A stretch of DNA of 64,000 bases, from the IMG/VR virus record IMGVR_UViG_3300037418_004082; one strand, written 5' to 3'. Source of the stretch: a virus. The translations under genes and the position numbers were made by a program. Under the pieces are notes generated by a model. It made no database searches. It saw only the letters and a program-made list of their open reading frames with translations, and was not told where the DNA came from. Shown here in pieces: positions 1-59,928 of the stretch. Numbering within the stretch: the first letter of the stretch is position 1; each line of letters begins with the position of its first letter.

Positions 1-1
1 G

Positions 2-12879: not shown

Positions 12880-12887
12880 GATAATCC
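12880..12887 (+). promoter_or_regulatory. GATAATCC candidate phage promoter
   Basis: Intergenic, upstream of the SD of gene 12906. Confidence 0.55.
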
Positions 12888-12905
12888 AACCGGAGGGCTA
12901 AGACC

Positions 12906-13739
12906 GTGTTGGATCAACTCAAGGCCGATACCCAGGCCGTCGTCGCGGGGTTGCGTAACGACCTCAAGACCACGCAGACGCAGCTCGACGAGGTTCGCAA
13001 GTTGACGCGCGAGACGCTGGAGCGGATGTACTTCTACGCCGGCAAGGCGAAGGACGCGGAGGATCGCAACGTCGTCCTGACGGCGCGCATCCGCGAGCTG
13101 GAGGACGAGCTGGTCAGGCTGCGCCCCACCGTGGAGGTGAGCAAGCCCAAGGAGCCCGTCGTCCCCGTGGCAGAGCTGCGCACGCCGCAGACGCTGCCGG
13201 TGAAGGTCCTCACGAAGTGCGCCAACTGCCCGGCGCAGTTCGAGCGCGGCCACGGCTACTGGGGCGCCTTGTGCAACGACTGCCGGGCGACCGTCAAGCC
13301 GGCACTGGAGGCCAAGAAGGCGGGAAAAGCGTCGAGCGACGCGGCACCTGGTGGTGAGAAGCCGGCGCCTAAACCCAAGCAAGCCAAGCCGGCCGACAAG
13401 CAGCCACAAGCACCAGCTTACACCAGCACGCGCGGCCTGGTCAAGTGCGTGAGCTGCTCGAACAACAAGGTGGACTTCGAGAAGGAAGGCCCGCGCTGCC
13501 GGGCGTGTCGCGAAGACATGGCTCCGGCCAACCCGCTGCCCAAGCGCACCGGCGCGATCGTCGCGGCCTACGCGGACAAGCCGGCCTGCGCGTCCTGCAA
13601 ACATGCCCAGAAGTGCCCGTACTGCAAGGTTCCAACGGGCAAGCCGTGCGAACACCTGGAGCTGGGCTTCATCTGCGGCTTGTCGAAGGCGAACGCTTGC
13701 GTGCCGACGGTCTTCGGCCACCTGCGCGAGCCGTCGTAG
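12906..13739 (+). CDS. Coiled-coil plus multi zinc-finger protein
   Basis: N-terminal heptads; several CxxC pairs. Confidence 0.75.
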   Translation: MLDQLKADTQAVVAGLRNDLKTTQTQLDEVRKLTRETLERMYFYAGKAKDAEDRNVVLTARIRELEDELVRLRPTVEVSKPKEPVVPVAELRTPQTLPVKVLTKCANCPAQFERGHGYWGALCNDCRATVKPALEAKKAGKASSDAAPGGEKPAPKPKQAKPADKQPQAPAYTSTRGLVKCVSCSNNKVDFEKEGPRCRACREDMAPANPLPKRTGAIVAAYADKPACASCKHAQKCPYCKVPTGKPCEHLELGFICGLSKANACVPTVFGHLREPS

Positions 13740-13764
13740 TTGGAGCACTTCACGAACCGTAACA

Positions 13765-13772
13765 GATAATTC
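13765..13772 (+). promoter_or_regulatory. GATAATTC candidate phage promoter
   Basis: Intergenic. Confidence 0.55.
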
Positions 13773-13818
13773 AACCAGTCCGTGTGACGTTTCGTGCGCA
13801 CACGAAAGCGAGGCTGGT

Positions 13819-13956
13819 ATGCCACAACTGAACGGCGAACCCGACCGGTTAACGTGGCGCGAGTTCGCGTTGGTGCTCTTGTGTTTGCTCGTGTGCCTGA
13901 CATCCGAATGCAATCGCGTGCCACCTCCCGTGTACTATTCGCCCTACGAACGATGA
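13819..13956 (+). CDS. 45-aa small membrane protein
   Basis: GAGG SD; FALVLLCLLVCL. Confidence 0.45.
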   Translation: MPQLNGEPDRLTWREFALVLLCLLVCLTSECNRVPPPVYYSPYER

Positions 13957-13967
13957 AGGAGACGTAA

Positions 13968-14522
13968 ATGAAACGCTGGATGACGTACTTGCTGTTGGCA
14001 CTGATGGTGCTGCTGTCGTTGACGCCGCTCGCGCAGTCGAAGACCACGCGTGAGCCCGTGCAGAAATTGATCCACGCCACGATCACGGACGTACACGACG
14101 GCGACACCGTCACGGCGCTGGTCGATCCATTGACCGTGCTGCACGTACGTTTGTTGGGTATCGACGCACCGGAGCTGAAGCAGGCGCCCTGGGGCGTGAA
14201 GTCGCGCGACACCTTGAAGGCCCTCGTGATGGGCAAGCTCGTGGCGATCATCGTGATGGACGCGGACCACCCGACCGACGTGTACGGCCGCACGCTGGCC
14301 TACCTGTGGGTCGGCAGCACCATGGTGCAGGAGCAGCTCGTGCTCGCGGGCATGGCCCAGACGAAGTTGTACGGCAAGGCGCCCAAGGACTTCCAGCGCC
14401 TGGTGGCGGCGGAAGCGATGGCGAAGGCAGCGCACGCGGGCTTGTGGAGCGACGAGGCGTTCATCGCGCCGTCGGACTGGCGCAAGCAGCACCATGTTGG
14501 GAAAGCCGGCGCCGGGAGATAA
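13968..14522 (+). CDS. Secreted thermonuclease (SNase-like)
   Basis: Signal peptide; VHDGDTV, VRLLGIDAPE, DVYGRTLAY, LVLAGMA, AKAAHAGLWS. Confidence 0.95.
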   Translation: MKRWMTYLLLALMVLLSLTPLAQSKTTREPVQKLIHATITDVHDGDTVTALVDPLTVLHVRLLGIDAPELKQAPWGVKSRDTLKALVMGKLVAIIVMDADHPTDVYGRTLAYLWVGSTMVQEQLVLAGMAQTKLYGKAPKDFQRLVAAEAMAKAAHAGLWSDEAFIAPSDWRKQHHVGKAGAGR

Positions 14523-14525
14523 TCC
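14518..14525 (+). promoter_or_regulatory. GATAATCC candidate promoter heading the RNA-gene island
   Basis: Overlaps the nuclease stop codon. Confidence 0.55.
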
Positions 14526-14822
14526 AGGTATGAGCGCTCAACGCGTTTGAATAGCCGAAAGGCGCGGGGAGGCGGTAGTGGTGCACCGCCCGTCTTCCTG
14601 TCTCTGGGGGCTTGACGCAGAGTGCCGCCGCAGCGTAGTCTGCACGTAGGTGATGATAGCCGGCCTGCCTGCCGGAGGGAGCCTTGGGTCGTCGGGTCGA
14701 AGCGCGCGAGCGTGATGGGACCAACCGCGTGGGGGACGGCCGCACCTGGCGGGGTCGGTGTCCACGTGAACCGCTGCGAGCGCGAGGCGCGGCTCTTGGG
14801 CAAGGCCGAACGTGCTTTTCTC

Positions 14823-14914
14823 GGCGAAGCAAGCTGCAGTGCGCCACGCCGGAGGTGGCAGGCTCCCGTTCCAGGAGCCCGGGAAACCCGCAGGTTCGAC
14901 TCCTGCCTTCGCCA
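14823..14914 (+). ncRNA. Atypical tRNA-like RNA A
   Basis: Perfect acceptor GGCGAAG/CTTCGCC+A; T arm GCAGG-TTCGACT-CCTGC; arm GGCTCC-CGTTCCA-GGAGCC (no U33); variable hairpin; 31-nt D region. Confidence 0.65.
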
Positions 14915-14950
14915 CTTGACGAACGCGATGGTCGTCTGCTAAAGTAGCTC

Positions 14951-15022
14951 CGCGCTGTAGAGCAGTGGCAGCTCGCGTGGCTCATAACCACGAGGTCGTC
15001 GGTTCAAGTCCGATCAGCGCAA
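14951..15022 (+). tRNA. Initiator tRNA-fMet (CAT)
   Basis: Full cloverleaf; C1:A72 mismatch, A11:U24, anticodon loop CTCATAA; CCA not encoded. Confidence 0.93.
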
Positions 15023-15097
15023 CTTGCCGGGCCGCTTGGCGTGGGTTACCGTTTTGGACAGTGATCCCCACGTCGAACTTTTGTCTGGCAAACCTCT

Positions 15098-15156
15098 GGG
15101 GGTGGGAGTGAATCCGGCTGCTAAAGCGGCCCCGGGAGTAGCACCCGGTTCCCCCT
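15098..15156 (+). ncRNA. Minimal tRNA-like element B (59 nt)
   Basis: GGGGG/CCCCC closing stem; hairpin GGCTGC-TAAA-GCGGCC; T-arm-like CCGGG-AGTAGCA-CCCGG. Confidence 0.35.
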
Positions 15157-15161
15157 TCAAC

Positions 15162-15289
15162 GTAAGCACTAGCTACAAGCCGTGTCGCGAGGCACGGACA
15201 CCGCCCGGGTGACCGGGGTTCACGGTGGGCAGAGCGACTTGAGGGGCAACCCTCTTGCGGGTTCCCGGTTCGAGCCCGGGGTGCGTACA
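15162..15289 (+). ncRNA. tRNA-like RNA C: acceptor plus T arm enclosing three GNRA hairpins
   Basis: GTAAGCAC/GTGCGTAC+A; TAGC after the acceptor; T arm CCCGG-TTCGAGC-CCGGG; GCGA, GTGA and GCAA loops. Confidence 0.6.
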
Positions 15290-15290
15290 G

Positions 15291-15362
15291 GCTCCTCTAG
15301 CTCAACGGTAGAGCGCTCGCCTGATAAGCGGGAGGCACCAGGGTCAGTACCTGGGTGGAGCA
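15291..15362 (+). tRNA. tRNA-Ile (GAT) with degenerate T loop
   Basis: D arm GCTC-AACGGTA-GAGC; anticodon loop CTGATAA; T loop GTCAGTA; one acceptor mismatch. Confidence 0.8.
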
Positions 15363-15364
15363 CT

Positions 15365-15468
15365 GCCAAGCCGAACGTACGGACCGCGACCGCAAGGCGT
15401 AGGGACGTCGGACGTGACCCGACCCGCAAGGGCGGGGGTAGGTTAAAGAAGTCCTGCCGGCGGCACCA
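15365..15468 (+). ncRNA. tRNA-like RNA D ending in an encoded ACCA
   Basis: GCC(AA)GCCG/CGGCGGC+A+CCA; GTAGG-10nt-CCTGC arm; GTCGG-ACGTGAC-CCGAC arm; two GCAA tetraloops. Confidence 0.55.
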
Positions 15469-15503
15469 ACTTCGGGTTCCGTAACCATCCTGCACTCACG
15501 GCG

Positions 15504-15511
15504 GATAATCC
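15504..15511 (+). promoter_or_regulatory. GATAATCC candidate phage promoter
   Basis: Intergenic, upstream of gene 15531. Confidence 0.55.
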
Positions 15512-15530
15512 TCTTAGAGGGTTGCCCGCC

Positions 15531-15884
15531 GTGAGTGTTTCTGTTACGCCACACGCCATCCAGCGCTACATCGAGCGCGCGTTCAACACGTCGCCCGACG
15601 CGGCGGCCAAGTTGATCATGAACTGCGTGCTCATGGCCAAGGGCCGCAAGAAGCGTGGCCGGGACATGCTGATCCGGCGCGTGCGCATCCTGGACGGCCG
15701 GGGCGTCGAGCACTTCTACCTGAAGTTCGTCACGCCCCAGCGCAAGCGCGTGTACCTCGCGGTGGACGCCCGGCTGTCGATCGTCTACACCGTGCTGACG
15801 CTGGAGATGTTCAAGGATCTGATCGGATCGCCCAGGCCGCGCACCGCGAAACGTCGTGACGACGCGGAGTTAAGCGACGATTAA
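15531..15884 (+). CDS. Hypothetical protein (HAxxRxxER motif, possible BECR-fold nuclease-like)
   Basis: VTPHAIQRYIER. Confidence 0.6.
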   Translation: MSVSVTPHAIQRYIERAFNTSPDAAAKLIMNCVLMAKGRKKRGRDMLIRRVRILDGRGVEHFYLKFVTPQRKRVYLAVDARLSIVYTVLTLEMFKDLIGSPRPRTAKRRDDAELSDD

Positions 15885-15916
15885 TATTACGTTACAAGAA
15901 AGTTATCCAAAACCCG

Positions 15917-15946
15917 TTGACGGATCGGGAGCGGTCGCGGTAACGT
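15917..15946 (+). promoter_or_regulatory. Candidate host sigma70-type promoter TTGACG-N18-TAACGT
   Basis: Good -35 preceded by an AT-rich UP-like tract (15881-15912). Confidence 0.45.
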
Positions 15947-15949
15947 ATG

Positions 15950-16470
15950 AGAGTCCCGGTTGGGACGACGCTCTGCTCCCGGTTGTGTCGGGTGCGCTGC
16001 ACGGTTTCCTCCTCTGGTGAGCTTGCCGCCTTCGATGGTAGTAGCTACCCGGCGAAAGGAGCCCAACGTGCGCCCTCCATGACCCCGACGAACGTCGAGT
16101 CCACCCTCCCGGAACTCGATCGGTTCTCCGAACCCTCCCCTGGGTTCGCGCCGACGGAACGATGCTCTCGGCTCTCCTGCTTCGGCGGGGCCCAGAATCG
16201 GGAGCTATCCGCTTCACTCGCCCACGTGTGGTGCCTGGCAGCAATGCCTACTCCGTGCAAAGCTCGTGACGCGCGAGATGTCGTTCTGGCCCAGGTCCTG
16301 GTGTCGCGGCCAGGTTCCGTGCTTCCTCGTGTTGCAGGCTCGACGGCGATTAAAAGGCTGCTACCTCCGAACGCGGCATCCGGTGCTGCTGGCCCTCGTG
16401 GTCCGCGCGCCCACCGCAGGCAATCGCCAACCGACCCCCGTCGAGCCTCGTGCCCGGCGGGGTGTTTCGT
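15950..16470 (+). ncRNA. Candidate large structured non-coding RNA
   Basis: No ORF with native codon usage; cUUCGg loop (16181), GGCA-GCAA-TGCC, perfect 11-bp long-range stem 16336-16346/16438-16448. Confidence 0.45.
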
Positions 16471-16523
16471 TTGTGACGCTTCGTTACAAGTTCGAAATGT
16501 GACGGTTCATAAAGCTTGTCTGA

Positions 16524-16532
16524 TGATATACT
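16524..16532 (+). promoter_or_regulatory. Extended -10 promoter TG-A-TATACT inside an imperfect palindrome
   Basis: TCTGATGA-TATAC-TCGTCAGA; SD AAGGAGG follows. Confidence 0.45.
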
Positions 16533-16553
16533 CGTCAGAAGGAGGGCCGTCGC

Positions 16554-16817
16554 TTGTCGTTGCTGAACCACCGTCGCTACCACCTGGTCACCACCGTCGA
16601 GCAGAACAGCTCCGTGACCAAGAGCGTCCCCGCCCTGAAGATGGTCGTCAACGGTCCAACGTCCGCGGGCGCCATGCAGGCGTTGCAGGCCAAGCTCTCC
16701 AACTTCGCGATGAGCGTGCACGCGGGCGAGCGTCGCCTCCCCAAGTCCGACGCGCGCCCCGGCTTGGAGTACCTGGCGTTCGACCTGGTGATGGAGCACG
16801 ATCTCGCGCGTCGCTAG
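16554..16817 (+). CDS. Hypothetical protein
   Basis: AAGGAGG SD; TTG start. Confidence 0.65.
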   Translation: MSLLNHRRYHLVTTVEQNSSVTKSVPALKMVVNGPTSAGAMQALQAKLSNFAMSVHAGERRLPKSDARPGLEYLAFDLVMEHDLARR

Positions 16818-16824
16818 ATAATTG
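16817..16824 (+). promoter_or_regulatory. GATAATTG candidate phage promoter
   Basis: Immediately after a stop, before the first virion-type gene. Confidence 0.5.
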
Positions 16825-16850
16825 GATCGTCGCAACCCTACGCGAGGTCC

Positions 16851-18308
16851 ATGATGCCCCTCCTGCACGATCCCGTCGTCATCTTCGTGAAAGCCGCGAG
16901 CGACGACTTGACGGCTACGCTGCTCGCCATCTCCGAAGCCGGCCTGCAGAAGAGCGCGAGCCAGTCGCCCGACGCCGTCGGCCTGGCCATGTACAAGGTC
17001 GCCGCGGAGCACGGCTTCGACCTGGACGACCTGATCGAGAAGCAGGCGGACTTCGAGCTGGCGAGCCACTGGCTGATGGGCTGCGAGCTGGCGAAGGCGG
17101 CCGGGCTGCTCACGCCGGGCCAGGCCCACGCGTTCGAGATGGAGAAGGCCGCGCTCGTGGAGCAGGCGGCCCGCGCGGGCGGCGCGTTCATGAACGCGGT
17201 CAAGGCGGTGGTCAACCCCGTCAAGAGCATCGCGGGCAAGGTGCGCGCCGGCATGCAGGACTATCAGCTCGCTCGTGCGATCAACAAGAGCGAGGTGAAC
17301 CCGGCGGCCGTGAAGGCGCCCACGCCCACCGTGGCGCAGGGCTCGACGTCGCGCGGCCTGTACCAGGACAACACGAACGCGGCCAAGGCGCAGGCCGGGC
17401 GCGCGAACGAGAACTACTTCCGTGGTCGCGAGGCGTCCACGCCGCAGCACTTCAACCAGCTCGCGCACGCGAACGATGCTGCGCGTTCGCACGCGCAGCA
17501 GACGGCTGGCATGAACGCCGTCCACGTGCAGAACCACGACGCGGCCGCCGCGGGCGTGCCGCACACGATGACCCCCGTGCAAGCGCCGGCCGGTCCGTCG
17601 AACATGCCCCACGTGCCGGCCATGGCCCCGCACCAGCAGCCCATCGGCACCCAGACGCCCGACGCGTTCAGCCTGGCTCGCGGCCGGGGCACGCTCCTGC
17701 GTCACCAGGCGGAAGCCCAGCGCGGGCCTATCACGGCCCAGCAGTACGCGCACGCCAACAGCGCGTCGCCGCGCCCGACCCAAGGTCAGGCCGCGATGGC
17801 GATGGGTGGGCACGACCAAGCCGTCGCGGACTTCCACGCGCAGCGCGCCGCCAAGGGCTTCGGCAAGGGCGCCCCGGTGGAGAACGGCACGCCCGCGGGC
17901 GGCCCCGGCCACCTGACGCCCGAACAGCAGCAGGCCGTGCGCCAGCTCCGCATCGAGCAGCAGGGCAAGTACCACCCGCAGCCGCAGCAGGGCCCGGAGC
18001 CTGCGCCCGCTCCCGCCCAGCCGCAGCACCAGGAGATCCCCTTGCTGCAGGGCCACGCGGCCGGCAACGGCGCGCCCACCGGTCCCGCGGATTCCGCGCT
18101 GGCGAACGCGCCCGCTCCGACCAACCAGCTCCACCAGGACTGGGAGGCCGCCAAGAACTGGATGCGCCAGCCCGTGCACCCGAACGCGGGCGGCATCACC
18201 CGCGGCCACGCCGCACTCGCGCTGGGCACCGCCGGGGCGGGCCTGGGAGCGGGCATTGTCGGCAGCGCCGTGCTGGCCGGCAACCACGCGCACCGGCAGC
18301 AAGGTTAG
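16851..18308 (+). CDS. Putative internal virion protein: KxA-rich N-terminus, Q/A/P/H low-complexity middle, C-terminal glycine zipper
   Basis: ITRGHAALALGTAGAGLGAGIVGSAVLAG. Confidence 0.7.
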   Translation: MMPLLHDPVVIFVKAASDDLTATLLAISEAGLQKSASQSPDAVGLAMYKVAAEHGFDLDDLIEKQADFELASHWLMGCELAKAAGLLTPGQAHAFEMEKAALVEQAARAGGAFMNAVKAVVNPVKSIAGKVRAGMQDYQLARAINKSEVNPAAVKAPTPTVAQGSTSRGLYQDNTNAAKAQAGRANENYFRGREASTPQHFNQLAHANDAARSHAQQTAGMNAVHVQNHDAAAAGVPHTMTPVQAPAGPSNMPHVPAMAPHQQPIGTQTPDAFSLARGRGTLLRHQAEAQRGPITAQQYAHANSASPRPTQGQAAMAMGGHDQAVADFHAQRAAKGFGKGAPVENGTPAGGPGHLTPEQQQAVRQLRIEQQGKYHPQPQQGPEPAPAPAQPQHQEIPLLQGHAAGNGAPTGPADSALANAPAPTNQLHQDWEAAKNWMRQPVHPNAGGITRGHAALALGTAGAGLGAGIVGSAVLAGNHAHRQQG

Positions 18309-18319
18309 AGGAGACGGAC

Positions 18320-18923: not shown

Positions 18924-18959
18924 AGTCCTACGTCAACCTTGACGTAGGACTTTTTGTTT
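18924..18959 (+). terminator. Intrinsic terminator
   Basis: AGTCCTACGTCAA/TTGACGTAGGACT inverted repeat followed by TTTTGTTT. Confidence 0.85.
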
Positions 18960-18982
18960 GGGCGCGTTCCTGCACGTCTGTT

Positions 18983-18990
18983 GATAATTC
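18983..18990 (+). promoter_or_regulatory. GATAATTC candidate phage promoter
   Basis: Directly after a terminator, before the fibre gene. Confidence 0.65.
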
Positions 18991-20559: not shown

Positions 20560-20563
20560 GGCT

Positions 20564-20571
20564 GATAATTC
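20564..20571 (+). promoter_or_regulatory. GATAATTC candidate phage promoter
   Basis: Follows the stem-loop; precedes fibre gene 2. Confidence 0.65.
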
Positions 20572-22602: not shown

Positions 22603-22633
22603 CCCCGGATGGGGTGAACCACCACCGCCTGCT

Positions 22634-22641
22634 GATAATTC
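22634..22641 (+). promoter_or_regulatory. GATAATTC candidate phage promoter
   Basis: Intergenic, upstream of AGGAG SD. Confidence 0.65.
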
Positions 22642-27859: not shown

Positions 27860-27921
27860 CGTCTCCCGGACCCGCGCCTGATAATTCCACCAGGCGCGGG
27901 TCTTTGTCGTGTCGGGAGACG
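27860..27921 (+). promoter_or_regulatory. Double hairpin with GATAATTC in the loop; outer stem pairs the SD of gene 27926
   Basis: GACCCGCGCCTG/CAGGCGCGGGTC (12 bp) and CGTCTCCCG/CGGGAGACG (9 bp). Confidence 0.7.
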
Positions 27922-35437: not shown

Positions 35438-35459
35438 GGGGTGATCGGCGGGCGAGGAG

Positions 35460-35467
35460 GATAATTT
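35460..35467 (+). promoter_or_regulatory. GATAATTT candidate promoter; ATG at +1
   Basis: ATG starts 12 nt after the G; a GGAGG also overlaps. Confidence 0.55.
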
Positions 35468-49400: not shown

Positions 49401-50371
49401 TGGACTATCCTGCCTTGATCGTAGACAACGAGCACACGTCGTTCGACTTGGTGGGCCACGTGCACGCCATCGCGATGACGTTCACGCCCACGTCGGTCGA
49501 ACAGCAGGTGACGTACACGCACCTGCGACCGGCCATCGGTGCCGTGGACGTCGTGCAGACCGACGAGGGCAAGGCGACGCCGGTCGGTCAGCGTGAAGCG
49601 ATGATCCCGTTCAAGACGGCGCGCAAGCAGGAGCTGATCTACGTGATGCCGCCCGACCGCAAGATCGCGCGGGACCCGGTGGCCTACCAGCAGTACCTGA
49701 AGGCGCAGGGGCTGTTCATCCCGGAGACCTTCTTGCCGATTCAGCTCCACGACCTGGGCGCGCACAAGCCGCCGCCGTTCCTGTACACGGGCGGCTTCGG
49801 GCTGGGCAAGCAGTTCCTGTCGTTCGACAAGACCGGCGTACCCAACAGCTTCCGGGACTTCAGCGGCTACGCGATCTACCTGGGCTACGTGACGGAGGCC
49901 AACAACCAGAAGGCGCTGCCGACGCACGAGAACAACCTGGTGTTCGCGGACACCCTGGGGACGCTCGACCGTGCCAAGGACGTCCAGACCGCCTACCAGT
50001 TCACCCGCCGGCCCATCCAGAAGGTCGGCCAGAACGACCTGACGAAGCGGCAAGCCTGCTTGGTGGCCTGGGCCGACGAGGCGGAGGAGCTGAACGGCGA
50101 CGTCGCCACCGGCAGCGAGAATTTCGGGCTCTCGCTCCTCAACCAGGTGCTCGCGCCCCTGGGCAAGAAGCCGACGCCCGCGGCCAAGCAGAAGGCCCAG
50201 GTGGGCTTCGGCGAGGCCATCGTGGTCTACACCGTGCCGCCGACGTACGACGCGAAGGGCAACATCACCGCGAAGGGCACCACGCTGGAGTTCGACGAGC
50301 AGGTGCGGGCGCTCGTGCGAGCGCACACCTTCCGGGTGCGGCGTAAGGAAGCCATCTGGGACGGCCGCTGA
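46463..50371 (+). CDS. Baseplate hub protein (gp27/late-control-D-like) with large insert
   Basis: FYVEGV..VHFL..IFEGEV.G..GRGLSF N-terminus; PNCNVVFP; YNAR..YTGRVEWNPYMMVDYPALIVD. Confidence 0.6.
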   Translation: MDSEDKNLPLTFEDKCGFYVEGVLCAFAVIQWIVEAGAVPQMFVTIPATPEMRSLSRRARVHFLVEEPAPPHDIVCIFEGEVSGRDFKKSADGRGLSFPVHHVVWHLDQYEMEALDNLVYIRALLNGTASTENVVATVTGSLLELFTPDNLVAILNDPAYVDKTTIAPGVKTAKVSADKLTVGDFVRGAFLLYRHVFNNSRIAATYTNDAMTFHQLGARFQLPDPAVVDWTDLYKRLMFALLTRGVNAAGGKQTFLDLVRTVCAQFLHQVVVQPHAESVTKQVQIKPQTFFNAIPNCNVVFPSMTGEVDFQESFTNKPTRMRTMFMPFGLSPDQDVSVLNRYFTVYAPVELQWRWEGISQVAAQSKPTAPQRAVDAKTKAPIIKKPVDGIPFVTQEEDARGIVSVDYPMPPMLNYAIMSEVSTYTRDAIDANLSPVDGTSDPAEVYKRLQSGTETDRLTKYRAFLSLALGHANGIDPQRFKSAPYLREFVNLDKLGGVVLPDTPTMVPTRIALMPLPIKVNLKNHTPTRQALVNTGVNYLVTRDGVVVEILRRDHQLFPEPLALPLGLKLAGVGNPGDYAALNKLVPPFGVARSEARGMIDFQAKNLVVPPVVYPEAAAVATNASYGDYVLLRPAVASNQPINFQTVRSSTMDDAMFARIRAGETSVHLEGGGLSVSGVVQGKTHYVKTNGNASQNDNCFVLKLPESIKIPFGVPLTLTINTKTSFVAGKPWLFCNHTKQATSASTLSHWANLGANQGIDAAVADNQVVGGNVGTVVIGFETLNGTLTGQQATMGAFLCAAIRQMGVKSVGETKAPKLGPATILMENVVEASSLYGPGARLDTSVGPLDVNGIKAQVSFFEQQLFKDFNTWDKDLTAGNTSSIGAPAVDVSAADRPTALPVDPATHSVFADNADLPTTPGMTPVSDADAKKLNAIGFNGATLQNFVHNYVSGYLNHQFYNARLGPQSYTGRVEWNPYMMVDYPALIVDNEHTSFDLVGHVHAIAMTFTPTSVEQQVTYTHLRPAIGAVDVVQTDEGKATPVGQREAMIPFKTARKQELIYVMPPDRKIARDPVAYQQYLKAQGLFIPETFLPIQLHDLGAHKPPPFLYTGGFGLGKQFLSFDKTGVPNSFRDFSGYAIYLGYVTEANNQKALPTHENNLVFADTLGTLDRAKDVQTAYQFTRRPIQKVGQNDLTKRQACLVAWADEAEELNGDVATGSENFGLSLLNQVLAPLGKKPTPAAKQKAQVGFGEAIVVYTVPPTYDAKGNITAKGTTLEFDEQVRALVRAHTFRVRRKEAIWDGR

Positions 50372-50377
50372 TAATTC
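50370..50377 (+). promoter_or_regulatory. GATAATTC candidate promoter heading the sigma/RNAP operon
   Basis: Overlaps the hub stop codon; GGAGG SD follows. Confidence 0.65.
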
Positions 50378-51024: not shown

Positions 51025-51786
51025 ATGGGCAGCTTCCGTGACGTCCTTCGCCGCCGGGCCGACAACGCCCCGGTGGCGCCCGCGCCTCGGCCAGAGGTCG
51101 CCTTTGACGAGCGGTGCAAGGCCGCTGCCAAGGCGCGCCCGCAGCCGCCGGAGGTAGAGCTGCCGGCGACGCCGTCGAACGTCTTCGTGCAGTACCAGCC
51201 GCTGATCGACAAGACGGTCGGCCGCTGGGCCAGCTCGGGTTTGCCCAAGGTGGTGCTCGACGCGGAGGCGAAGCGGATCGTCGCGAAGGCGCTGGGCAGT
51301 CACGACCCGTCGAAAGGTACGCTGGGGCTGCACCTGCAGAACCACCTCCAGCAGATGGACGCCTTCGTCAACACGTTCGCGCCGGACGTGCGCGTGCCGC
51401 TTGACCGTCTGCGCGACGTGAACAAACACGTGAGCGACGACATCGCGTTTCGTGTGGACCACGGGTATGCGCCGCAGAACGCCGGAGCGCTGAACAAGTT
51501 CCAGACCAACCTCTACTCGAAGGTACAAGCGGGTGGCTTCTCGCAGCCCGTGAAGGAGGATCTGGGGCACGAGCAGATCGCGATGGACTTCCTCTACCAC
51601 GACCTGCCCAAGACGCACAAGCTGGTTTTCGCGCACAGCGTTGGCTACAACGGCATGCCGAAGCTCACCACCAATGACCTCGCTACCAAGCTGGGCGTGA
51701 GCGCCGGCCGCGTCAGCCAGTTGAAGAACGACATCGCCCAGCGGGCACACGAGTACAACTACGCGATCGAGAGCCTGATGCGATGA
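51025..51786 (+). CDS. Phage sigma70-family factor (divergent regions 2 and 4)
   Basis: QYQPLIDKTVGRW..AEAKRIVAKALGSHDPSKG..DVRVP (region 2); HKLVFAHSVGYNG..TTNDLATKLGVSAGRVSQL (region 4 HTH). Confidence 0.8.
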   Translation: MGSFRDVLRRRADNAPVAPAPRPEVAFDERCKAAAKARPQPPEVELPATPSNVFVQYQPLIDKTVGRWASSGLPKVVLDAEAKRIVAKALGSHDPSKGTLGLHLQNHLQQMDAFVNTFAPDVRVPLDRLRDVNKHVSDDIAFRVDHGYAPQNAGALNKFQTNLYSKVQAGGFSQPVKEDLGHEQIAMDFLYHDLPKTHKLVFAHSVGYNGMPKLTTNDLATKLGVSAGRVSQLKNDIAQRAHEYNYAIESLMR

Positions 51787-52690: not shown

Positions 52691-55600
52691 GTGCGCACGC
52701 CCCAATCCCTCTTCAAGGACATGGCCCGCGAGTTCGGCGAGGGTCTCACGCACGCGTTTCCGATCGTCACGCCCGACAAGAAGGCCGTGGCGATCACCGC
52801 CGTGCACGTGCCGACGATGCTCGACCCCACGGACTACAACGCCCAGAAGGACACCATCATGAAGGGCGGCACGTGGGGCGTGCCCGTCAAGGCGACGGTC
52901 GCCATGCACGACGCCAAGGGGAAGGTGACGAGCAAGCACGACGTGCGCGTGGGCTTCTTGCCGACGCCCACGAACCGCCACACGTTCATCATCAACGGCA
53001 AGGAGTACCAGGTGAACATGCAGCGCCGCCTGCGGCCCGGCGTGTACACCAAGTTCAACCAGCTCGGCCAGGCGACGGCGGACTTCAACCTGGGCAAGGG
53101 CCGCAACTTCGCGCTTGCGCTCGACCCGGAGAAGAACCAGGTGGAGATGAAGTTCGGCAGCTCGCGCGTGCCGCTGCTGCCGGTGCTGAAGCACGTCTTC
53201 GGCAAGACCACGCTGGGGCTGGGCAAGGCGTTCGACGCGCCGATGGGCGCCGACGCGGAGCTGACCGCGCTCAAGGACCTGCATGCGCTGGTGCTCAAGA
53301 ACCAGACGGTGCCGTCGGACAAGACCGGGATCGTGCACGGGTTGCAGGACTACTTCCAGGCCACGCAGCTCGAACCCGCCGTCACGAAGCTCGTCGTGGG
53401 GGAGGCGCACAGCAACGTCAACGGTGACGTGCTCCAGCTCGCGGCGAAGCAGTTGCTCGCCGTGCACAAGCGCGAAGTGGACCCGTCGGGCAAGGACCAG
53501 ATGGCGTTCACGGAAGTGCACGGCGTCGAGGACTTCCTGCGCGAGCGCGTGCAGAAGAACCGCGGGATGATCGGTTACAAGCTGCGTCCACGCATCGAGA
53601 AGTACGATGACGTGCGCGAGTTGAAGCTGCACCAGTATGTGCAGCCGCTGATCGACGACTTCTTCACGAAGAGCGCGCAGAGCAACCACGTGATGCAGAT
53701 CAACCCCCTGGAGATGAAGGAGAACGCCTACAAGCTCTCCAGCCTGGGCGAAGGCGCCATCGGCGACACGCACGCCGTGACGCCGGAGGTGCGCGTCATC
53801 CACCCCAGCTCGATGGGCTTCATCGACCCCGTGCGCACGCCCGACAACGCCAAGGCCGGCGTGGACGTGCGCCTGGCGCTGGGCGCGAGCAAGGTGGGCA
53901 AGAACCTGCTGATCGACGTGCAGGACCGCAACGGCGAGTTCGTCTCGATGTCGCCGGAGAAGCTCTACGACAAGGTGGTGGCTCACGACAAGGAGCCCGT
54001 GGAGAACGGGCTCGTGCGCGCCATCCACCGCGGCCAGCTCGTGGACGTGTCGCCGTCGAAGGTGGACTACCGCCTACAGGCCGACCGCCAGTTCACCGTC
54101 AGCACGACGCTCGTGCCGTTCCTCGCGAACACGCACGCGCACCGCGCCGCGATGGGCGCCAAGATGCTGGGCCAGGCCGTGAGCCTGGTCGATCGCGAGC
54201 CGCCCATCGTGGACACCCCGCACTCGGAGATCGCGGGCGAGTTCGCGTCGCTGCGCAGTCCCGTCGCGGGGACGGTCAGCAAGATCGAGAAGGGCGTCAT
54301 TCACATCAAGTCGGGCGACACGACGCACAAGGTGAACTTCCCTTACGAGTTCCCGCTCAACGGGCACTCGTTCCTGCACGCGACCCCCGTCGTGAAGGCG
54401 GGTGACACGGTGACCAAGAACCAACTGCTCGCCGACACCAACTTCACGCAGAACGGTCAGCTCGCGTTGGGCAAGAACCTCACCGTGGCCTACTTGCCGA
54501 TGAAGGGCCTCAACCACGAGGACGCGGTGGTCGTCACGCGAAGCGGCGCGGCCAAGCTCACGAGCCAGCACCAGCACATCGAAGAGGTGGAGATCGACGG
54601 GCGCAGCGTACACGACAAGAAGAAGTTCCAGGCCCACTTCCCGGGTCGCTTCGAGCTGCAGCACCTGGGCAAGCTGGACGACCAGGGCGTCGTGAAGGTC
54701 GGCACCCGGCTGCAGGAAGGCGACCCCATCCTTGCGAGCCTGCGCAAGCGGCTGATGTCGCCGGAGCAGCTCCTGCTGGGCAAGGCCAACAAGGGCCTGG
54801 TCGAACCGTTCAGCGACACCAGCGTGACCTGGGACAAGCCGTACGAAGGGCGTGTCACGGGCGTCGAGAAGACGTCCAAGGGCATCAAGGTGTCCATCTC
54901 GGCCGTGGCGACGCTGCAGGAGGGCGACAAGCTCTGCGGCCGGCACGGCAACAAGGGCGTCGTGGCGGCCATCATCCCGGACGCGGAGGCCCCGCGCACC
55001 GCCGACGGCAAGGTGCCCGACGTGATCCTGAACTCCGCCGGCCTGACGAGCCGCATGAACAACGGCCAGATCTACGAGGTCGTGGCCGCCAAGGCGCTCC
55101 AGGCGCTGGGCAAGGCAGGGCAGAAGTTCCCGCACTTCGCGGGCGTCAACACGCACCAGCTCGTGAAGATGCTGCGCGACAAGGCCGGCATCAGCGAGAC
55201 GGAGCAGCTCTACGACGGCACGACCGGCCGCAAGCTGGGCGGGCCGGTGCTGATGGGCCCCATGTACATGCTCAAGCTGTTCAAGCAGGCGGAGACCGGA
55301 TTCTCCGCGCGCTCCGGCGGCGATTACGACATCGACCTGCGGCCCACCAAGGGCGGCGAGGAGGGCGCGAAGTCGGTGGGCCACCTCGACCTGTATGGCC
55401 TGCTCGCGCACGGGGCGCGGGCGTTCGTGCGCGACGCCCACATGAAGAGCGAGTACAACCCGGAGGTCCTCACCGCGATGTGGAAGGGCCAGCCGCTGCC
55501 GCCGCCCAAGCCCACGTTCGCCTTCAAGAAGTTCGAGGCGATGCTGGGCGGCATGGGCGTTAACGTGAAGAAGGAGGGGCACACGCTGCAGCTCCTGCCG

Positions 55601-56980
55601 CAGACCGACGCGGAGACCCTGGCCCGGTCCAGCGGTCCTATCGTGCGTCCGCTCACGGTCAACGACAAGCCCGACCCCGTCACCAACCTGCCCTTCCGCC
55701 CGGAGGCGGGTGGCCTGTTCGACCCCAACGCCACGGGTGGGCTCGTGGGCACGCGTTGGAGTCACATCCCGCTCGCGGAGCCGATCGTGAACCCCTTGTT
55801 CCACAACGCCGCACGCACGTTGTTAGGATTGACCAAGGACGAGTTCAATGCTAACCTGTATGATCGCGGCGCAGTGCACGTCAAGCAACAACTTGCGGCC
55901 ATCGACGTGCCCGCACGTATCGACGAACTTAAGCATCAGCTCGTGAACACGAACGCCGTGTCGAAGCGTGACGGCATTCACAAGCAGTTGAAGTACCTCA
56001 CGGCATTACACAAGAGCGGACTCCGTCCAGAAGATGCGTACATCATGCACCACGTGCCCGTCGTGCCTCCTCACGTGCGGCCCATCTACCCGGACCCCGA
56101 CACGGGACGACTTGTCGTGTCGGACGCGAACGTTCTCTACAAGAACCTGATGCTCGTGAACGACCAGCTCGCGCAGCACAAGAACCTCGGCGACGCGGAC
56201 ACGATCCGCGCGTTGCGTCACGGGTTGAATGATGCGTTCGCCAAGGTGCAGGGCCTCGATGCACCAGCCGAGCAGATGTCGAAGGAGAAGCCCGCCGTGG
56301 GCTTCCTCAAGGTCATCACGGGCACCGGCCAGGCCAAGGATGGCTTCTTCCAGGCGAAGCTCGTGAGCCGGCGCCAGGACATCGCCGGTCGCGGCGTCGT
56401 GGTGCCGGATACGAGCCTGGGCATCGACGAGCTGGGCGTGCCCAAGGCCATGGCCTGGAAGATCTACCGCAACCACGGCATCGGCGAGTTGGTGCAGAGC
56501 GGTATGCCCCTCGTGGCGGCCGCCCGCGAGTTCGAAGACCAGACGCCGACCGCCGAAAAGGCCGTGCTTTCGGCCATGAAGAAGTTCCCGACCGTGATCT
56601 CGCGTGCGCCCTCGCTCCACAAGTTCAACATCGCGGCCTTCCGGCCTCGGATGGTGGAGGGCAAGAGCCTGCGCGTGAACACGCTCGTGCTCAAGGGGTT
56701 CAACATGGACTTCGACGGGGACCAGGTCAACGTGCACGTACCCATCTCGCCGGAAGGCGCGAAGGATGCGGTCACGCGGATGCTGCCTTCCGCCAACCTG
56801 TACAACCCCTTGAACTCCGCGCCGATCCACGTGCCGTCTCAAGAGACGGTGCTGGGTCTGTGGAAGGCGACCAACGTCGCCGGGAAACCGCCCGTTCGCT
56901 CCTTCGCCACCCAACAGGAAGCGACCGCGGCTTACCGACGGGGTGAGATCGGCATCACCGACCCCATTTCCATCGGTTGA
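52691..56980 (+). CDS. rpoB-rpoC(N): RNA polymerase beta subunit fused to the N-terminal half of beta'
   Basis: Beta motifs TFIINGKE, DPVRTPD, GDKLCGRHGNKG, SRMN.GQ, GPMYMLKL; beta' motifs PVVPPHVRP, RAPSLH, NMDFDGD, PSQETVLG. Confidence 0.97.
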   Translation: MRTPQSLFKDMAREFGEGLTHAFPIVTPDKKAVAITAVHVPTMLDPTDYNAQKDTIMKGGTWGVPVKATVAMHDAKGKVTSKHDVRVGFLPTPTNRHTFIINGKEYQVNMQRRLRPGVYTKFNQLGQATADFNLGKGRNFALALDPEKNQVEMKFGSSRVPLLPVLKHVFGKTTLGLGKAFDAPMGADAELTALKDLHALVLKNQTVPSDKTGIVHGLQDYFQATQLEPAVTKLVVGEAHSNVNGDVLQLAAKQLLAVHKREVDPSGKDQMAFTEVHGVEDFLRERVQKNRGMIGYKLRPRIEKYDDVRELKLHQYVQPLIDDFFTKSAQSNHVMQINPLEMKENAYKLSSLGEGAIGDTHAVTPEVRVIHPSSMGFIDPVRTPDNAKAGVDVRLALGASKVGKNLLIDVQDRNGEFVSMSPEKLYDKVVAHDKEPVENGLVRAIHRGQLVDVSPSKVDYRLQADRQFTVSTTLVPFLANTHAHRAAMGAKMLGQAVSLVDREPPIVDTPHSEIAGEFASLRSPVAGTVSKIEKGVIHIKSGDTTHKVNFPYEFPLNGHSFLHATPVVKAGDTVTKNQLLADTNFTQNGQLALGKNLTVAYLPMKGLNHEDAVVVTRSGAAKLTSQHQHIEEVEIDGRSVHDKKKFQAHFPGRFELQHLGKLDDQGVVKVGTRLQEGDPILASLRKRLMSPEQLLLGKANKGLVEPFSDTSVTWDKPYEGRVTGVEKTSKGIKVSISAVATLQEGDKLCGRHGNKGVVAAIIPDAEAPRTADGKVPDVILNSAGLTSRMNNGQIYEVVAAKALQALGKAGQKFPHFAGVNTHQLVKMLRDKAGISETEQLYDGTTGRKLGGPVLMGPMYMLKLFKQAETGFSARSGGDYDIDLRPTKGGEEGAKSVGHLDLYGLLAHGARAFVRDAHMKSEYNPEVLTAMWKGQPLPPPKPTFAFKKFEAMLGGMGVNVKKEGHTLQLLPQTDAETLARSSGPIVRPLTVNDKPDPVTNLPFRPEAGGLFDPNATGGLVGTRWSHIPLAEPIVNPLFHNAARTLLGLTKDEFNANLYDRGAVHVKQQLAAIDVPARIDELKHQLVNTNAVSKRDGIHKQLKYLTALHKSGLRPEDAYIMHHVPVVPPHVRPIYPDPDTGRLVVSDANVLYKNLMLVNDQLAQHKNLGDADTIRALRHGLNDAFAKVQGLDAPAEQMSKEKPAVGFLKVITGTGQAKDGFFQAKLVSRRQDIAGRGVVVPDTSLGIDELGVPKAMAWKIYRNHGIGELVQSGMPLVAAAREFEDQTPTAEKAVLSAMKKFPTVISRAPSLHKFNIAAFRPRMVEGKSLRVNTLVLKGFNMDFDGDQVNVHVPISPEGAKDAVTRMLPSANLYNPLNSAPIHVPSQETVLGLWKATNVAGKPPVRSFATQQEATAAYRRGEIGITDPISIG

Positions 56981-56991
56981 ATCACCATCGC

Positions 56992-57022
56992 GCGACGCGG
57001 GGACCACGTGGCCCTCGCGTCG
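56992..57022. repeat. Stem-loop after the RNAP gene (possible terminator, no U tract)
   Basis: GCGACGCGGGG / CCCTCGCGTCGC. Confidence 0.45.
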
Positions 57023-57066
57023 CACCACTGTCGAAGCACATTCGTGTATGGTAGGAGAGATTACGC

Positions 57067-59871
57067 ATGCTCTTGAAAGACCTTCCGCTCCGCGTGCAAA
57101 CCATCGCGGCGCAGTCCGTTCGTGTGTCGGACAACGCCCAAACGGTGATGGAGAAGCGCTACTACGTGAAGGATGACCAGCGCAAGCCCACGGAAGACGT
57201 GGACGGCATGTACTGGCGGGTGGCCTTCACGCTGGCTCTGATCGACGTCCGCTACGGCGGCAACCCCACGCTCCTGATGGAGCAGACCCAGGACGGTCTG
57301 TACGAGGTCTCGGAGTTCGAGGCCGACGACGCGATCATCTACGCGGCCGCGCTGCGCTTCTACCGCGTGATGCGCGACGGCATGTGGCTCCCCAACAGCC
57401 CCTGCGTCGCCAACGCGGGCGCTCGCACCGGCCAGCTCTCGGCCTGCTTCGTGCTGCCCATCCCCGACGACCTGGAGGGCATCTTCGAGACCGTGAAGCA
57501 GGCGGCCCTGATCCACCAGACCGGCGGCGGCACGGGCTTCGCCTTCAGCCGCCTGCGCCCCAAGAACGACATCGTCAACTCCTCCAAGGGCAACTCCAGC
57601 GGCCCGGAGTCCTTCCTGGAGGTCTTCAACGCCTCCACGGAGTCCATCAAGCAGGGCGGCATGCGCCGCGGCGCCAACATGGGCATCCTGCGCATCGATC
57701 ACCCGGACATCGAGAGCTTCATCGTCAAGAAGCTGGAGCCGGGCGTGTGGGCCAACTTCAACGTCAGCGTGGGCGTCACCGACGCTTTCGAGCAGGCCCT
57801 GGAGGCGGAGGATGACCGCTACGAGCTGATCAACCCGCGCAGCGGCCCGACCGGTCAGTTCCTGCACGCGCGCCAGGTGCTCAAGAGCATCGTGAAGTGC
57901 TCGTGGACTCGCGGCGAGCCCGGCCTGGTCTTCCTGAACCGCATGAACCGGGAGAACCCCGTGCCGCACGCGGGCGAGTACGAGGCGACCAACCCTTGCG
58001 GCGAACAGCCCCTGATCCCCTACGAGTCCTGCAACCTGGGCTCGATCACGCTCGATCGCTTCGTCGTTCCCGCGGTTCCCGGTCGCTACACGGCGGAGAC
58101 CCAGACCCACGGAGAGTCTTCCGGTCGGCTGTGGATCCCGGGGCAGCCCGCGCGGATCGACTGGGACGGCCTGGCCGCTGCGGTCAAGATCGGCGTCTGG
58201 GCGATGGACAACGTCGTGGACGCCAACGCCTACGTGCCCAAGGTGCCCCAGATCGCGCAGATGGCCCTGTACACCCGCAAGATCGGCCTGGGCATCATGG
58301 GCCTGGCCCGCGCCCTGTTCAAGCTCAAGCTGGGCTACCACACGCCCGAAGGCCGCGAGATGGCCGCCTTGCTCTTCGCCTTCATCGACGCGCACGCCAA
58401 GCTGGCGTCGCAGGAGTTGTCGAAGCAGCGCGGCGTGTACCCGTACTACGCGGAGCACCGCGAGGAGTCGGAGAGCTTCCACCGCCGGCTGTTCGCGAAG
58501 CGCCAGAAGGCCGTGGAAGGCTACATCGGGACCGGTGTCGTCGCCAACGTCGGCGTGTGGAACATCGTGCACAAGCTCTACGGTCAGGCCATCGACCAGC
58601 TCCCGACGCACGGTATGCGCAACTCCACGACCGGCACGATCGCGCCCACCGGCACGCTCTCGATCTTCCACGAGACCTCCGGCGGCTGCGAGCCCGTGTT
58701 CGCCATCGTGTTCACGCGCTTCCAGGCCGACGAGGAGATGCCCGACACCGACCCCGTCGTGCGTCAGGAGCTGCTCGACATCTTCGGCGGCGACGAGACG
58801 ATGGTGGCCCGCGTGCTGGAGATCGTCCAGAAGCAGGAAGCCGAAGGCGGCATCGACGGCTCGCTGGTCAGCGCGCTGAAGCTGGGCTTCCTGCGCGGCT
58901 TCGGTACGATCGAGCAGTACGAAGCGCTCACGCAGGCGTCGGAGTACCTGGTCTGCGCGCCCGACGTGCACCCGATGGACCACGTGCGCATGCAAGCCGG
59001 GCTGCAGATCTTCAACGACAGCGCCGTGTCGAAGACGATCAACTTCTCGGAGAACGCCACGGAGCAGGACATCGAAGACGCGATGATGCTCGCCATCAAG
59101 TTGGGCGTCAAGGGCATCACCGTGTACCGCGACAAGAGCCGCGAGTTCCAACCGCTCACCGCCGGCACGAAGTCGAGCAAGGCGTTGGCGGAGAAACCCG
59201 TTGACACGAACGTCGTGACGACGTTTAATGGGGAGACCACCACGCTCCCCACGACAACGGAGGTCAAGCCGGTGACGACCAGCACCCAGGGACCGCGTCC
59301 GCGCACCGAAGACCTGTTCGGCTTCACGCGCACCATCACGACCGGAGACGGGAAGCTCTACGCCACGCTGAACTACGACGAGTTCGGCATGCGCGAGGTC
59401 TTCCTGAACATCGGGCGTTCCGGCGGCACGACCCACAGCTTCGGCGAAGCGTTGGGCCGCATGGTCACGCTCGCGCTCCAGAACGGCGTGGACCCCGACG
59501 CGATCGCGTCCAACCTGGTGGGCATCCGCAGCTCCGATCCGTCGGGCTTCGGGGCGAGCCGGGTGCTGTCCATCGCCGACGGCGTGGGGCAGTTGCTCAA
59601 GAACGCGCCGCGATCGCTGAAGGAGCTGTACGCGCCGGAGGCACCCCTGCACGGTCGCGGCGGCGCCCACGGCAGCGGGTACGTCCACATCCAGCAGCTC
59701 CCGCCCGTCGAGGTCACGGTGGGCGCCGCCCAGACGCAGGACGAGCGCACCTACCGCGTGCAGGTGCTGGGCGAGAGCCCGGACTGCCCGGACTGCGGCA
59801 AGGCGCTCCGCTTCGAGGAGGGGTGCAAGAAGTGCCCCGACTCCGTCTGCGGTTACAGCGCCTGCTCGTAA
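57067..59871 (+). CDS. nrdJ: Class II (B12-dependent) ribonucleotide reductase with TSCPD domain and Zn ribbon
   Basis: PNSP, QLSACFV, GGGTG, RRGANMG, TNPCGEQ, ESCNLGSI, TIAPTG, VSKTIN; C-terminal CPDCG..EEGC..C..CGYS. Confidence 0.95.
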   Translation: MLLKDLPLRVQTIAAQSVRVSDNAQTVMEKRYYVKDDQRKPTEDVDGMYWRVAFTLALIDVRYGGNPTLLMEQTQDGLYEVSEFEADDAIIYAAALRFYRVMRDGMWLPNSPCVANAGARTGQLSACFVLPIPDDLEGIFETVKQAALIHQTGGGTGFAFSRLRPKNDIVNSSKGNSSGPESFLEVFNASTESIKQGGMRRGANMGILRIDHPDIESFIVKKLEPGVWANFNVSVGVTDAFEQALEAEDDRYELINPRSGPTGQFLHARQVLKSIVKCSWTRGEPGLVFLNRMNRENPVPHAGEYEATNPCGEQPLIPYESCNLGSITLDRFVVPAVPGRYTAETQTHGESSGRLWIPGQPARIDWDGLAAAVKIGVWAMDNVVDANAYVPKVPQIAQMALYTRKIGLGIMGLARALFKLKLGYHTPEGREMAALLFAFIDAHAKLASQELSKQRGVYPYYAEHREESESFHRRLFAKRQKAVEGYIGTGVVANVGVWNIVHKLYGQAIDQLPTHGMRNSTTGTIAPTGTLSIFHETSGGCEPVFAIVFTRFQADEEMPDTDPVVRQELLDIFGGDETMVARVLEIVQKQEAEGGIDGSLVSALKLGFLRGFGTIEQYEALTQASEYLVCAPDVHPMDHVRMQAGLQIFNDSAVSKTINFSENATEQDIEDAMMLAIKLGVKGITVYRDKSREFQPLTAGTKSSKALAEKPVDTNVVTTFNGETTTLPTTTEVKPVTTSTQGPRPRTEDLFGFTRTITTGDGKLYATLNYDEFGMREVFLNIGRSGGTTHSFGEALGRMVTLALQNGVDPDAIASNLVGIRSSDPSGFGASRVLSIADGVGQLLKNAPRSLKELYAPEAPLHGRGGAHGSGYVHIQQLPPVEVTVGAAQTQDERTYRVQVLGESPDCPDCGKALRFEEGCKKCPDSVCGYSACS

Positions 59872-59885
59872 GGTAGAACCAGAGG

Positions 59886-59910
59886 CCCCCGGCGATTGCC
59901 GGGGGTTTTT
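59886..59910 (+). terminator. Intrinsic terminator
   Basis: CCCCCGGC-GATT-GCCGGGGG-TTTTT. Confidence 0.9.
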
Positions 59911-59920
59911 GCTTGGGGCG

Positions 59921-59928
59921 GATAATTC
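59921..59928 (+). promoter_or_regulatory. GATAATTC candidate promoter for a leaderless helicase mRNA
   Basis: After a terminator; ATG 12 nt after the G; no SD. Confidence 0.7.

Follow-up and report, generated by a model that had tools for sequence, protein, structure and literature searches.

A GATAAT-centred element as a candidate phage-specific, -10-type promoter in an uncultured phage encoding an RNA polymerase and two sigma70-family proteins

The DNA analysed is a stretch of 64,000 nucleotides (nt), hereafter the window, that corresponds to bases 19702-83701 of the IMG/VR record IMGVR_UViG_3300037418_004082, a 153,476-bp sequence from an uncultured phage (65% G+C, 74% complete by CheckV). 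It includes twelve copies of the hexamer GATAAT, which an earlier reading made from the sequence alone had proposed, in the form GATAAT(T/C)Y, as the promoter of a phage RNA polymerase (RNAP). Nearly all genes of the window are on the + strand. The window includes a cluster of small genes (1-12,800), a tRNA/RNA island, virion genes including one for a tape-measure-like protein, and genes for ribonucleotide reductase, an SNF2 helicase and an RNA polymerase. According to the gene calls made in this analysis 9.3% of the record is non-coding. A megablast comparison of 24 kb with isolated phages produced no match, and PHROGs assigned no function to most of the genes located 3' of the GATAAT sites. 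The large subunit of ribonucleotide reductase (57067-59871) found its best bacterial matches in Gemmatimonadota metagenome-assembled genomes; with only 36-38% identity these matches were rejected as naming a host phylum and are considered a weak hint.

All twelve copies (12/12) are on the + strand, exactly at the positions given in the sequence-only reading, and each is located on the coding strand either between genes (12880, 13765, 15504, 18983, 20564, 22634, 27880, 35460 and 59921, each number being the position of the G) or across a stop codon (14518, TAA; 16817, TAG; 50370, TGA). The extended form GATAAT(T/C)Y is present in 11 of them, the exception being the copy at 16817, which reads GATAATTG. 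The copy closest to the small-gene cluster, GCTGATAATCC (12877..12887), is 26 nt 5' of the start codon of a gene for a 277-amino-acid protein with no known function (12906-13739). The next, ACAGATAATTC (13762..13772), heads an open reading frame (ORF) for a hydrophobic protein of 45 amino acids (13819-13956) that is followed by a nuclease-like gene (13968-14522). This small ORF, missed by the gene caller, begins 54 nt after the copy at 13765, has a GAGG ribosome-binding site and a hydrophobic segment, and probably encodes a small membrane protein. The TAA stop codon of the nuclease-like gene is overlapped by the copy at 14515..14525, which heads the non-coding RNA/tRNA island (tRNAs at 14833-15363). 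An ATG at 14530, the predicted transcription start (+1, see below) of this copy, was considered as the start of a leaderless gene and rejected, as its frame ends after 6 codons. Located 3' of tRNA-Ile, GCGGATAATCC (15501..15511) heads the gene at 15531-15884, and the weakest fit, the GATAATTG copy (16814..16824) across the TAG stop codon of 16554-16817, heads the gene at 16854-18308.

The copy GTTGATAATTC (18980..18990), directly preceded by an intrinsic terminator hairpin and U tract at 18924..18951, heads a gene for a fibre/decoration-like virion protein (19035-20504). The perfect 11-mer GCTGATAATTC is found three times: at 20561..20571, 3' of a 17-bp hairpin (20521-20558) and heading a second fibre/decoration-like gene (20608-22602); at 22631..22641, heading the gene at 22666-23775; and at 50367..50377, across the TGA stop codon of 46463-50371 and heading the RNA polymerase operon. 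Between them lie CCTGATAATTC (27877..27887), within the loop of a 12-bp hairpin (27869-27902) and heading the gene at 27926-28450, and GAGGATAATTT (35457..35467), which heads a baseplate/fibre-like gene (35472-36032) whose ATG is at the predicted +1 and whose operon continues into genes for proteins of 1425, 1551, 480 and 1302 amino acids. The hairpin around the copy at 27880 is followed by a U-rich tract, and therefore a terminator and a promoter would be superimposed at this site. The last copy, GCGGATAATTC (59918..59928), directly follows an intrinsic terminator (59884..59913) located 3' of the ribonucleotide reductase gene; it heads the SNF2 helicase gene (59933-61489), also with its ATG at the predicted +1, in an operon that continues into the gene for the C-terminal half of beta'. 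The terminators that the sequence-only reading had placed directly before the copies at 18983 and 59921 proved to be real hairpins with U tracts (-21.1 and -27.5 kcal/mol, with z of -4.3 and -3.9, respectively). Four copies of the window are located directly 3' of, or within, strong hairpins or terminators.

The number of copies is well above chance. Shuffled versions of the window contain 2.65 +/- 1.5 copies of GATAAT on both strands together, with a maximum of 6, and for GATAATYY there are 11 copies vs 0.72 expected. The whole record includes 29 copies of the hexamer, 20 of which are 12-54 nt 5' of a co-oriented start codon or of the RNA island. GATAAT is the commonest in the record among the 384 hexamers with five A/T (29 copies vs a mean of 6.1), it ranks next after the Shine-Dalgarno word AAGGAG when the hexamers of the record are sorted by intergenic enrichment, and a gene-free Markov model places the CTGATAATTC words with the 8-mers that are most over-represented in the record. 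With a codon-aware null, of the kind that the sequence-only reading had asked for, 1.3 intergenic copies of GATAAT are expected per strand, and the count on the strand of the downstream gene is about 15-fold this number; genes proved to be at expectation and not depleted of the word (2 sense and 5 antisense copies, expected 0.75 and 3.1).

To describe the element beyond the hexamer, 20 sites of this phage and 11 of a related genome, G002, were selected on GATAAT and aligned (n=31). The consensus consists of ttGgG (-25 to -21 from the G), an A+T-rich patch, CGGCt-GATAAT-TC, three unconserved positions, a pyrimidine (Y) and a purine (R). While GATAAT is constant in 31/31 sites, being the word used for selection, a pyrimidine occupies +11 from the G in 30/31 and a purine +12 in 29/31. 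If the G is counted as -12, the hexamer occupies -12 to -7, it is extended 5' by GGCT (-16 to -13) and 3' by TC (-6, -5), and the conserved purine, 7 nt past the hexamer, falls on +1. The bases A(-11) and T(-7), those flipped out by sigma region 2, are present. This numbering puts the Y-R step at -1/+1, the geometry of sigma70-family promoters. The start that had been predicted about 12 nt after the G coincides, in silico, with this conserved step. In gene 35472, and in the helicase gene of this phage, of G002 and of a second relative, G001, an ATG without a Shine-Dalgarno sequence is found exactly at +12 from the G. These ATGs at the predicted +1 would imply leaderless mRNAs and are the best in silico evidence for the position of the RNA start. 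The intergenic 11-mers with up to 2 mismatches from GCTGATAATTC have the hexamer intact in all cases except one.

The sequence-only reading had called the element a -10-only promoter with no shared -35. This description is roughly right, as no TTGACA-like hexamer at 16-18 bp and no TG extension was found at any of the 12 window sites, nor was TAAA found in the upstream profile. Nevertheless, the real element is an 11-mer, (C)GGCT-GATAAT-TC, with a weak TTGGG/A+T-rich region upstream: the CGGCT adjoining the hexamer on its 5' side is significantly conserved, and the TTGGG located about 19 bp upstream scored above all 2000 null draws. Part of the TTGGG signal may come from the U tracts of the terminators that precede several sites.

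A search of IMG/VR identified three relatives of the polymerase (G001, G002 and G003) with 55-65% identity. In G002 (68% G+C), the RNAP is 64% and the sigma factor described below as sigmaA 62% identical to those of this phage, and there are 14 forward and 5 reverse copies of GATAAT, the respective numbers for a control word being 0 and 2. GATAAT is kept at 9 of 11 orthologous upstream regions in G002, where the flanking intergenic DNA is only 39% identical in an ungapped comparison. The orthologous sites of G001 (57% G+C) are mixed, with GATAAT at some and TATAAT at others. G003, a complete genome of 208 kb with an RNAP 55% identical to that of this phage, has no excess of GATAAT; its top over-represented word is CCTATAATA, with 15 copies of the 8-mer core vs 0.36 expected, and 16 of its 25 copies of TATAAT are intergenic, before co-oriented genes and with the same Y-R offset. 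The G003 equivalent of GCTGATAATTC is CCCTATAATA, in the same geometry. The local motif is found at the head of the polymerase operon in 4/4 genomes, as GATAAT in this phage, G002 and G001 and as TATAAT in G003. Judging from these alignments, each phage of the clade appears to have its own rigid version of one -10-type element, in keeping with a reader encoded by the phage and drifting in step with its sites. The site within the loop at 27880 is kept in G002, as is the part GCGCCTG/CAGGCGC of the surrounding stem. In addition to the one-stranded sites, a perfect palindrome GATAAT-N4-ATTATC is located just 5' of a Shine-Dalgarno sequence at record positions 152357-152372 (window coordinate 132656) and, in G002, at 103996-104011 and 106159-106174; it differs from those sites and resembles either two divergent promoters or the operator of a dimeric protein.

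The GATAAT motif is absent from the early-gene clusters. A two-hexamer sigma70 scan, which none of the 12 window GATAAT sites passed, detected an enrichment of passing sites only in positions 1-20000 of the window (6 vs 1.4 expected), and degenerate promoters with TATAAT, TATAGT or TATGAT are found in this region and in the small-gene cluster at the right-hand side of the record. Ordinary sigma70-like promoters were seen at window positions 915-942, 9698-9727 and 14916-14945 and at record positions 100950-100978, with a concentration in the small-gene clusters; an example is cTGACA-N17-TATAAT, 5' of the gene at window coordinate 81336, and another is inside the RNA island, just 5' of tRNA-Met. 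From the sequence, the phage seems to have two promoter classes, a host-like one that precedes the small and presumably early genes, and the rigid 11-mer in other places. The words CGTAAC and TTCGCA were considered as a second promoter class and rejected: CGTAAC is mostly within genes, and TTCGCATCAC is in 5' leaders, 3' of TATAAT-type promoters. A CA-rich word, (T)TCGCATCAC(A), often as 2-3 tandem copies, occupies the leaders of small early-type genes between the TATAAT-type promoter and the Shine-Dalgarno sequence (window 949, 1289-1317, 4151 and 9743; record 19457-19500 and 101001), and may enhance translation or serve in the leader as a protein-binding element.

The record encodes a single polymerase set. 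A gene at 52691..56980 (+ strand) codes for a protein of 1429 amino acids that consists of beta fused to the N-terminal half of beta' and includes the catalytic NMDFDGD motif and the clamp helices, and a gene at 61721..63565 (+ strand) codes for the C-terminal half of beta' (614 amino acids). No alpha subunit was found in the record. The beta' part aligns ungapped (E 5.5e-54) through the clamp helices, the dock of sigma region 2, which are of normal length. The match to the beta-beta' N-terminal protein spans 5.8 kb in G003 (L011 9898-15753) vs 4.3 kb in this phage, and in Vibrio phage D181 the match overlaps an annotated homing endonuclease; an insertion or intein may be present in the polymerase gene of some relatives.

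Two sigma70-family proteins accompany this polymerase. The first, named here sigmaA, has 301 amino acids and is encoded outside the window (record 107075-107980) by the second gene of an operon whose own strand lacks GATAAT, as would fit a factor made first that then switches the sites on. It is recognized by Pfam Sigma70_r2 (E 3.6e-10) and aligns to residues 380-581 of E. coli sigma70, that is, regions 2 to 4. Its PDB matches include RpoD (1.8e-8) and FliA (5.6e-5), its region 2 being near enough to RpoD for detection by phmmer; on TIGR02479, the FliA family model, it scores 36 bits vs a cut-off of 189.6, and RpoD-type models score higher. Compared with E. coli sigma70, W433 and T440 are kept, Y430 is replaced by H and Q437 by K. 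Residue Q437 of sigma70 is one of those reading -12, and a K at this position of sigmaA could suit a G at -12. The second protein, sigmaB, is a divergent sigma70-family protein of 253 amino acids encoded within the RNA polymerase operon (51025..51786, + strand). Its match to Pfam Sigma70_r4 (E 0.0025) is below the cut-off. An AlphaFold2 model of moderate confidence has two helical domains, and each of the best 50 matches that Foldseek listed from the PDB (best E 2.7e-4) is a sigma-factor chain or model; on the basis of this model sigmaB is sigma-like by predicted fold. On both sides of sigmaB, 5' of the beta-beta' gene, are genes for two proteins of unknown family, with 209 (50394-51023) and 301 amino acids (51783-52688), which are candidates for further polymerase subunits, perhaps in place of alpha or omega.

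SigmaA, sigmaB and the polymerase are all present in 4/4 related genomes. No close orthologue of sigmaA was detectable in isolated phages. As a single query sigmaA had no match in IMG/VR, and the alignment of four sigmaA sequences retrieved there only the same three relatives and unrelated phage sigmas; the protein search in four more distant RNAP-bearing records gave no match, and a Pfam Sigma70_r2 search of five records, an overlapping set, gave only divergent or weak matches. For sigmaB there was no tblastn match in isolated phages and no useful sequence match in the PDB.

Taken together, the strand bias, the position before genes and after terminators, the Y-R step, the ATGs at the predicted start, the conservation in relatives and the absence from early clusters support the promoter reading in silico, though not in its bare-hexamer form. 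We consider it probable, at roughly 0.65, that GATAAT is the core of a phage-specific, sigma70-family promoter of the -10 type that depends on a phage sigma factor and is served mainly by the phage core enzyme. The sites would be read by a phage-encoded sigma70-family factor, likeliest sigmaA with its intact region 2. Produced from an operon that has no GATAAT promoter, sigmaA would steer an RNA polymerase core to about 20 sites, those in front of the RNA polymerase operon, virion operons, the tRNA/RNA island, and genes for helicase and nucleotide metabolism. The core would probably be the phage's own two-gene enzyme, the beta-beta' fusion plus the C-terminal half of beta', at least after its synthesis or in the case of injection. 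For the small genes of the early clusters, the ordinary TATAAT-type promoters would be used instead, presumably by the host holoenzyme. The polymerase operon is itself behind a GATAAT site, and therefore its first round of transcription would need host core with sigmaA or an injected phage enzyme.

Several points weigh against this assignment. As the polymerase operon lies behind GATAAT, a purely phage-RNAP reading requires that the enzyme be injected or that host core carry out the first round. GATAAT differs from TATAAT at one of 6 positions and shares with it the two critical bases, and the equivalent motif of G003 is TATAAT, so the host primary sigma could contribute, especially with an activator. 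Both late virion genes and genes usually of the early or middle class (ribonucleotide reductase, helicase, tRNAs) are headed by the motif, which therefore does not define a clean temporal class. That sigmaA and not sigmaB is the likeliest reader follows from residue conservation and operon logic only, and the sigmaA of G003 differs from that of this phage and G002 at the equivalents of sigma70 residues 436, 440 and 455 alongside its different motif, a single contrast among four genomes that was not counted as evidence. Finally, the gene calls come from a simple caller based on G+C at third codon positions (GC3).

Which enzyme works with the sigma factor is the point at which the closest alternative departs from this reading. 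In the manner of T4 gp55 or SPO1 gp28, sigmaA could appropriate the host core to read the GATAAT sites, leaving the phage polymerase for another promoter class or purpose. Since the polymerase operon is behind GATAAT, something else must transcribe it first, and the region 2 of sigmaA is close enough to bacterial RpoD for phmmer; moreover, phage sigma homologues act on host core according to reviews (PMC7824862; PMC13282480). We nevertheless find this arrangement unlikely, as the clamp helices of the phage beta' have normal length, sigmaA, sigmaB and the polymerase co-occur in 4/4 related genomes, the virions of phage Arash contain sigma and polymerase together (PMC10585845), and among the enriched hexamers and 8-mers there is no second conserved motif fit for the phage enzyme. 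At the opposite end is a self-contained viral transcription machine in which a bacterial-type, alpha-less two-gene beta-beta' core with the phage's own sigma70-family factor would be packaged in the virion and injected, and about 20 operons including those of the polymerase genes would be transcribed without the host enzyme. This extension is only tentative, with the odds somewhat against it; if true, it would provide the first case of a viral multisubunit RNA polymerase that depends on a sigma factor and has a defined promoter.

Recognition of the sites by host enzyme with its primary sigma, as weak -10s, either unaided or with a phage activator bound upstream, is less probable still. MotA/AsiA at T4 middle promoters are the model for activator-aided host reading, and the five TATAAT positions with A(-11) and T(-7), the weak TTGGG/A+T-rich element upstream and the TATAAT equivalent in G003 are all consistent with it. 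On the other hand, neither a TG extension nor, at 16-18 bp, a -35 hexamer is found at any of the 12 sites, G occupies -12 in 31/31 sites of two genomes, each relative has its own rigid flanks, and the hexamer with its flanks is nearly invariant, unlike the degenerate host-type promoters of the early clusters. It is highly improbable that the element is not a promoter, being instead the operator of a phage DNA-binding protein or a signal for RNA processing or stability at cistron 5' ends. The palindrome found once in the record and twice in G002 indicates that some protein may bind the word, but the 20 canonical sites are strictly one-stranded and asymmetric, their Y-R step is fixed and leaderless ATGs follow at a distance like that of a polymerase start, and several of them are directly after terminators, where a new start is needed.

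Two other features were noted in this phage and its relatives. The octamer GCGATCGC, the HIP1 palindrome known from cyanobacteria, is in strong excess in G003 (240 vs 67 expected) and G002 (66 vs 15), with only 12 copies in this record; the excess may reflect the hosts or restriction avoidance. The SNF2 helicase begins MRPYELFLAKTA (window 59933-59968), and the G003 gene at about 16040, behind a TATAATA site, begins MRPY; the MRP start of the helicase could be a virion-targeting or processing tag.

The system lends itself to direct testing, the candidate promoter being short, rigid and conserved and its start predictable, and the change from GCTGATAATTC to CCCTATAATA between relatives is a natural experiment on the joint change of sigma and promoter. 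The motif also aids the annotation of these metagenomic genomes, in which it marks operon starts, leaderless genes and the RNA island.

Among known systems, T4 late promoters, TATAAATA, are read by gp55, which has region 2 only, together with gp33 and the sliding clamp. They share with the GATAAT sites an element of -10 type that is short, rigid and rich in A+T, lacks a canonical -35 and precedes virion genes of a large phage, and reading through a phage-encoded sigma-family protein, proposed here. The sequence-only reading chose them as the analogue. However, the sequence is different, the G+C-rich upstream extension is conserved here, the motif also heads non-late genes, sigmaA covers regions 2 to 4 and this phage has its own beta-beta' polymerase. 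The SPO1 middle promoters are a functional likeness, a short phage-private element read via a phage sigma, and the canonical primary-sigma promoter (TTGACA-N16-18-TATAAT) does not describe the window sites, 0/12 of which qualified in the two-hexamer scan. A closer look-alike than T4, and the nearest known element, is the -10 of sigma28 (FliA/SigD/WhiG), (-15)GCCGATAA(-8), in which GC at -15/-14 serves as an extended element ahead of GATAA, with A(-11) flipped out (PMC12784957). With no shift in register, 7 of its 8 positions recur in the phage consensus, (-15)GCTGATAAT(-7) or GCTGATAA. The differences are that sigma28 promoters have TAAA/TCTAAAG upstream where the phage has a weak TTGGG, and that their reader belongs to the FliA/WhiG family whereas sigmaA by score does not and the phage sites control phage genes.

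Like this phage, the Salmonella phage Arash combines a bacterial-type beta-beta' polymerase that is fused or nearly so (33% identity, with 100% of the query covered) with a phage sigma factor and a neighbouring helicase, and purified Arash virions contain abundant beta, beta', sigma and helicase (PMC10585845); as Arash is a very distant relative, this is by analogy a lead and not evidence for this phage. We found no published description of the promoters of this lineage, and the word "promoter" is not present in the Arash report (PMC10585845). In reviews, large phages fall into two groups, one that has its own multisubunit RNA polymerase but lacks sigma and one that has sigma factors but lacks a polymerase (PMC7824862, PMC13282480). 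Both are present in this phage and its relatives, a lineage barely studied so far. The phiKZ and AR9 polymerases consist of four or five pieces and have no sequence-recognizable sigma homologue (PMC7824862, PMC13282480). Their non-virion RNAP promoters resemble the GATAAT sites in being short, phage-specific promoters of phages that encode multisubunit RNA polymerases, but here the core is a bacterial-like enzyme in two genes, accompanied by two sigma70-family proteins and a bacterial-like -10.

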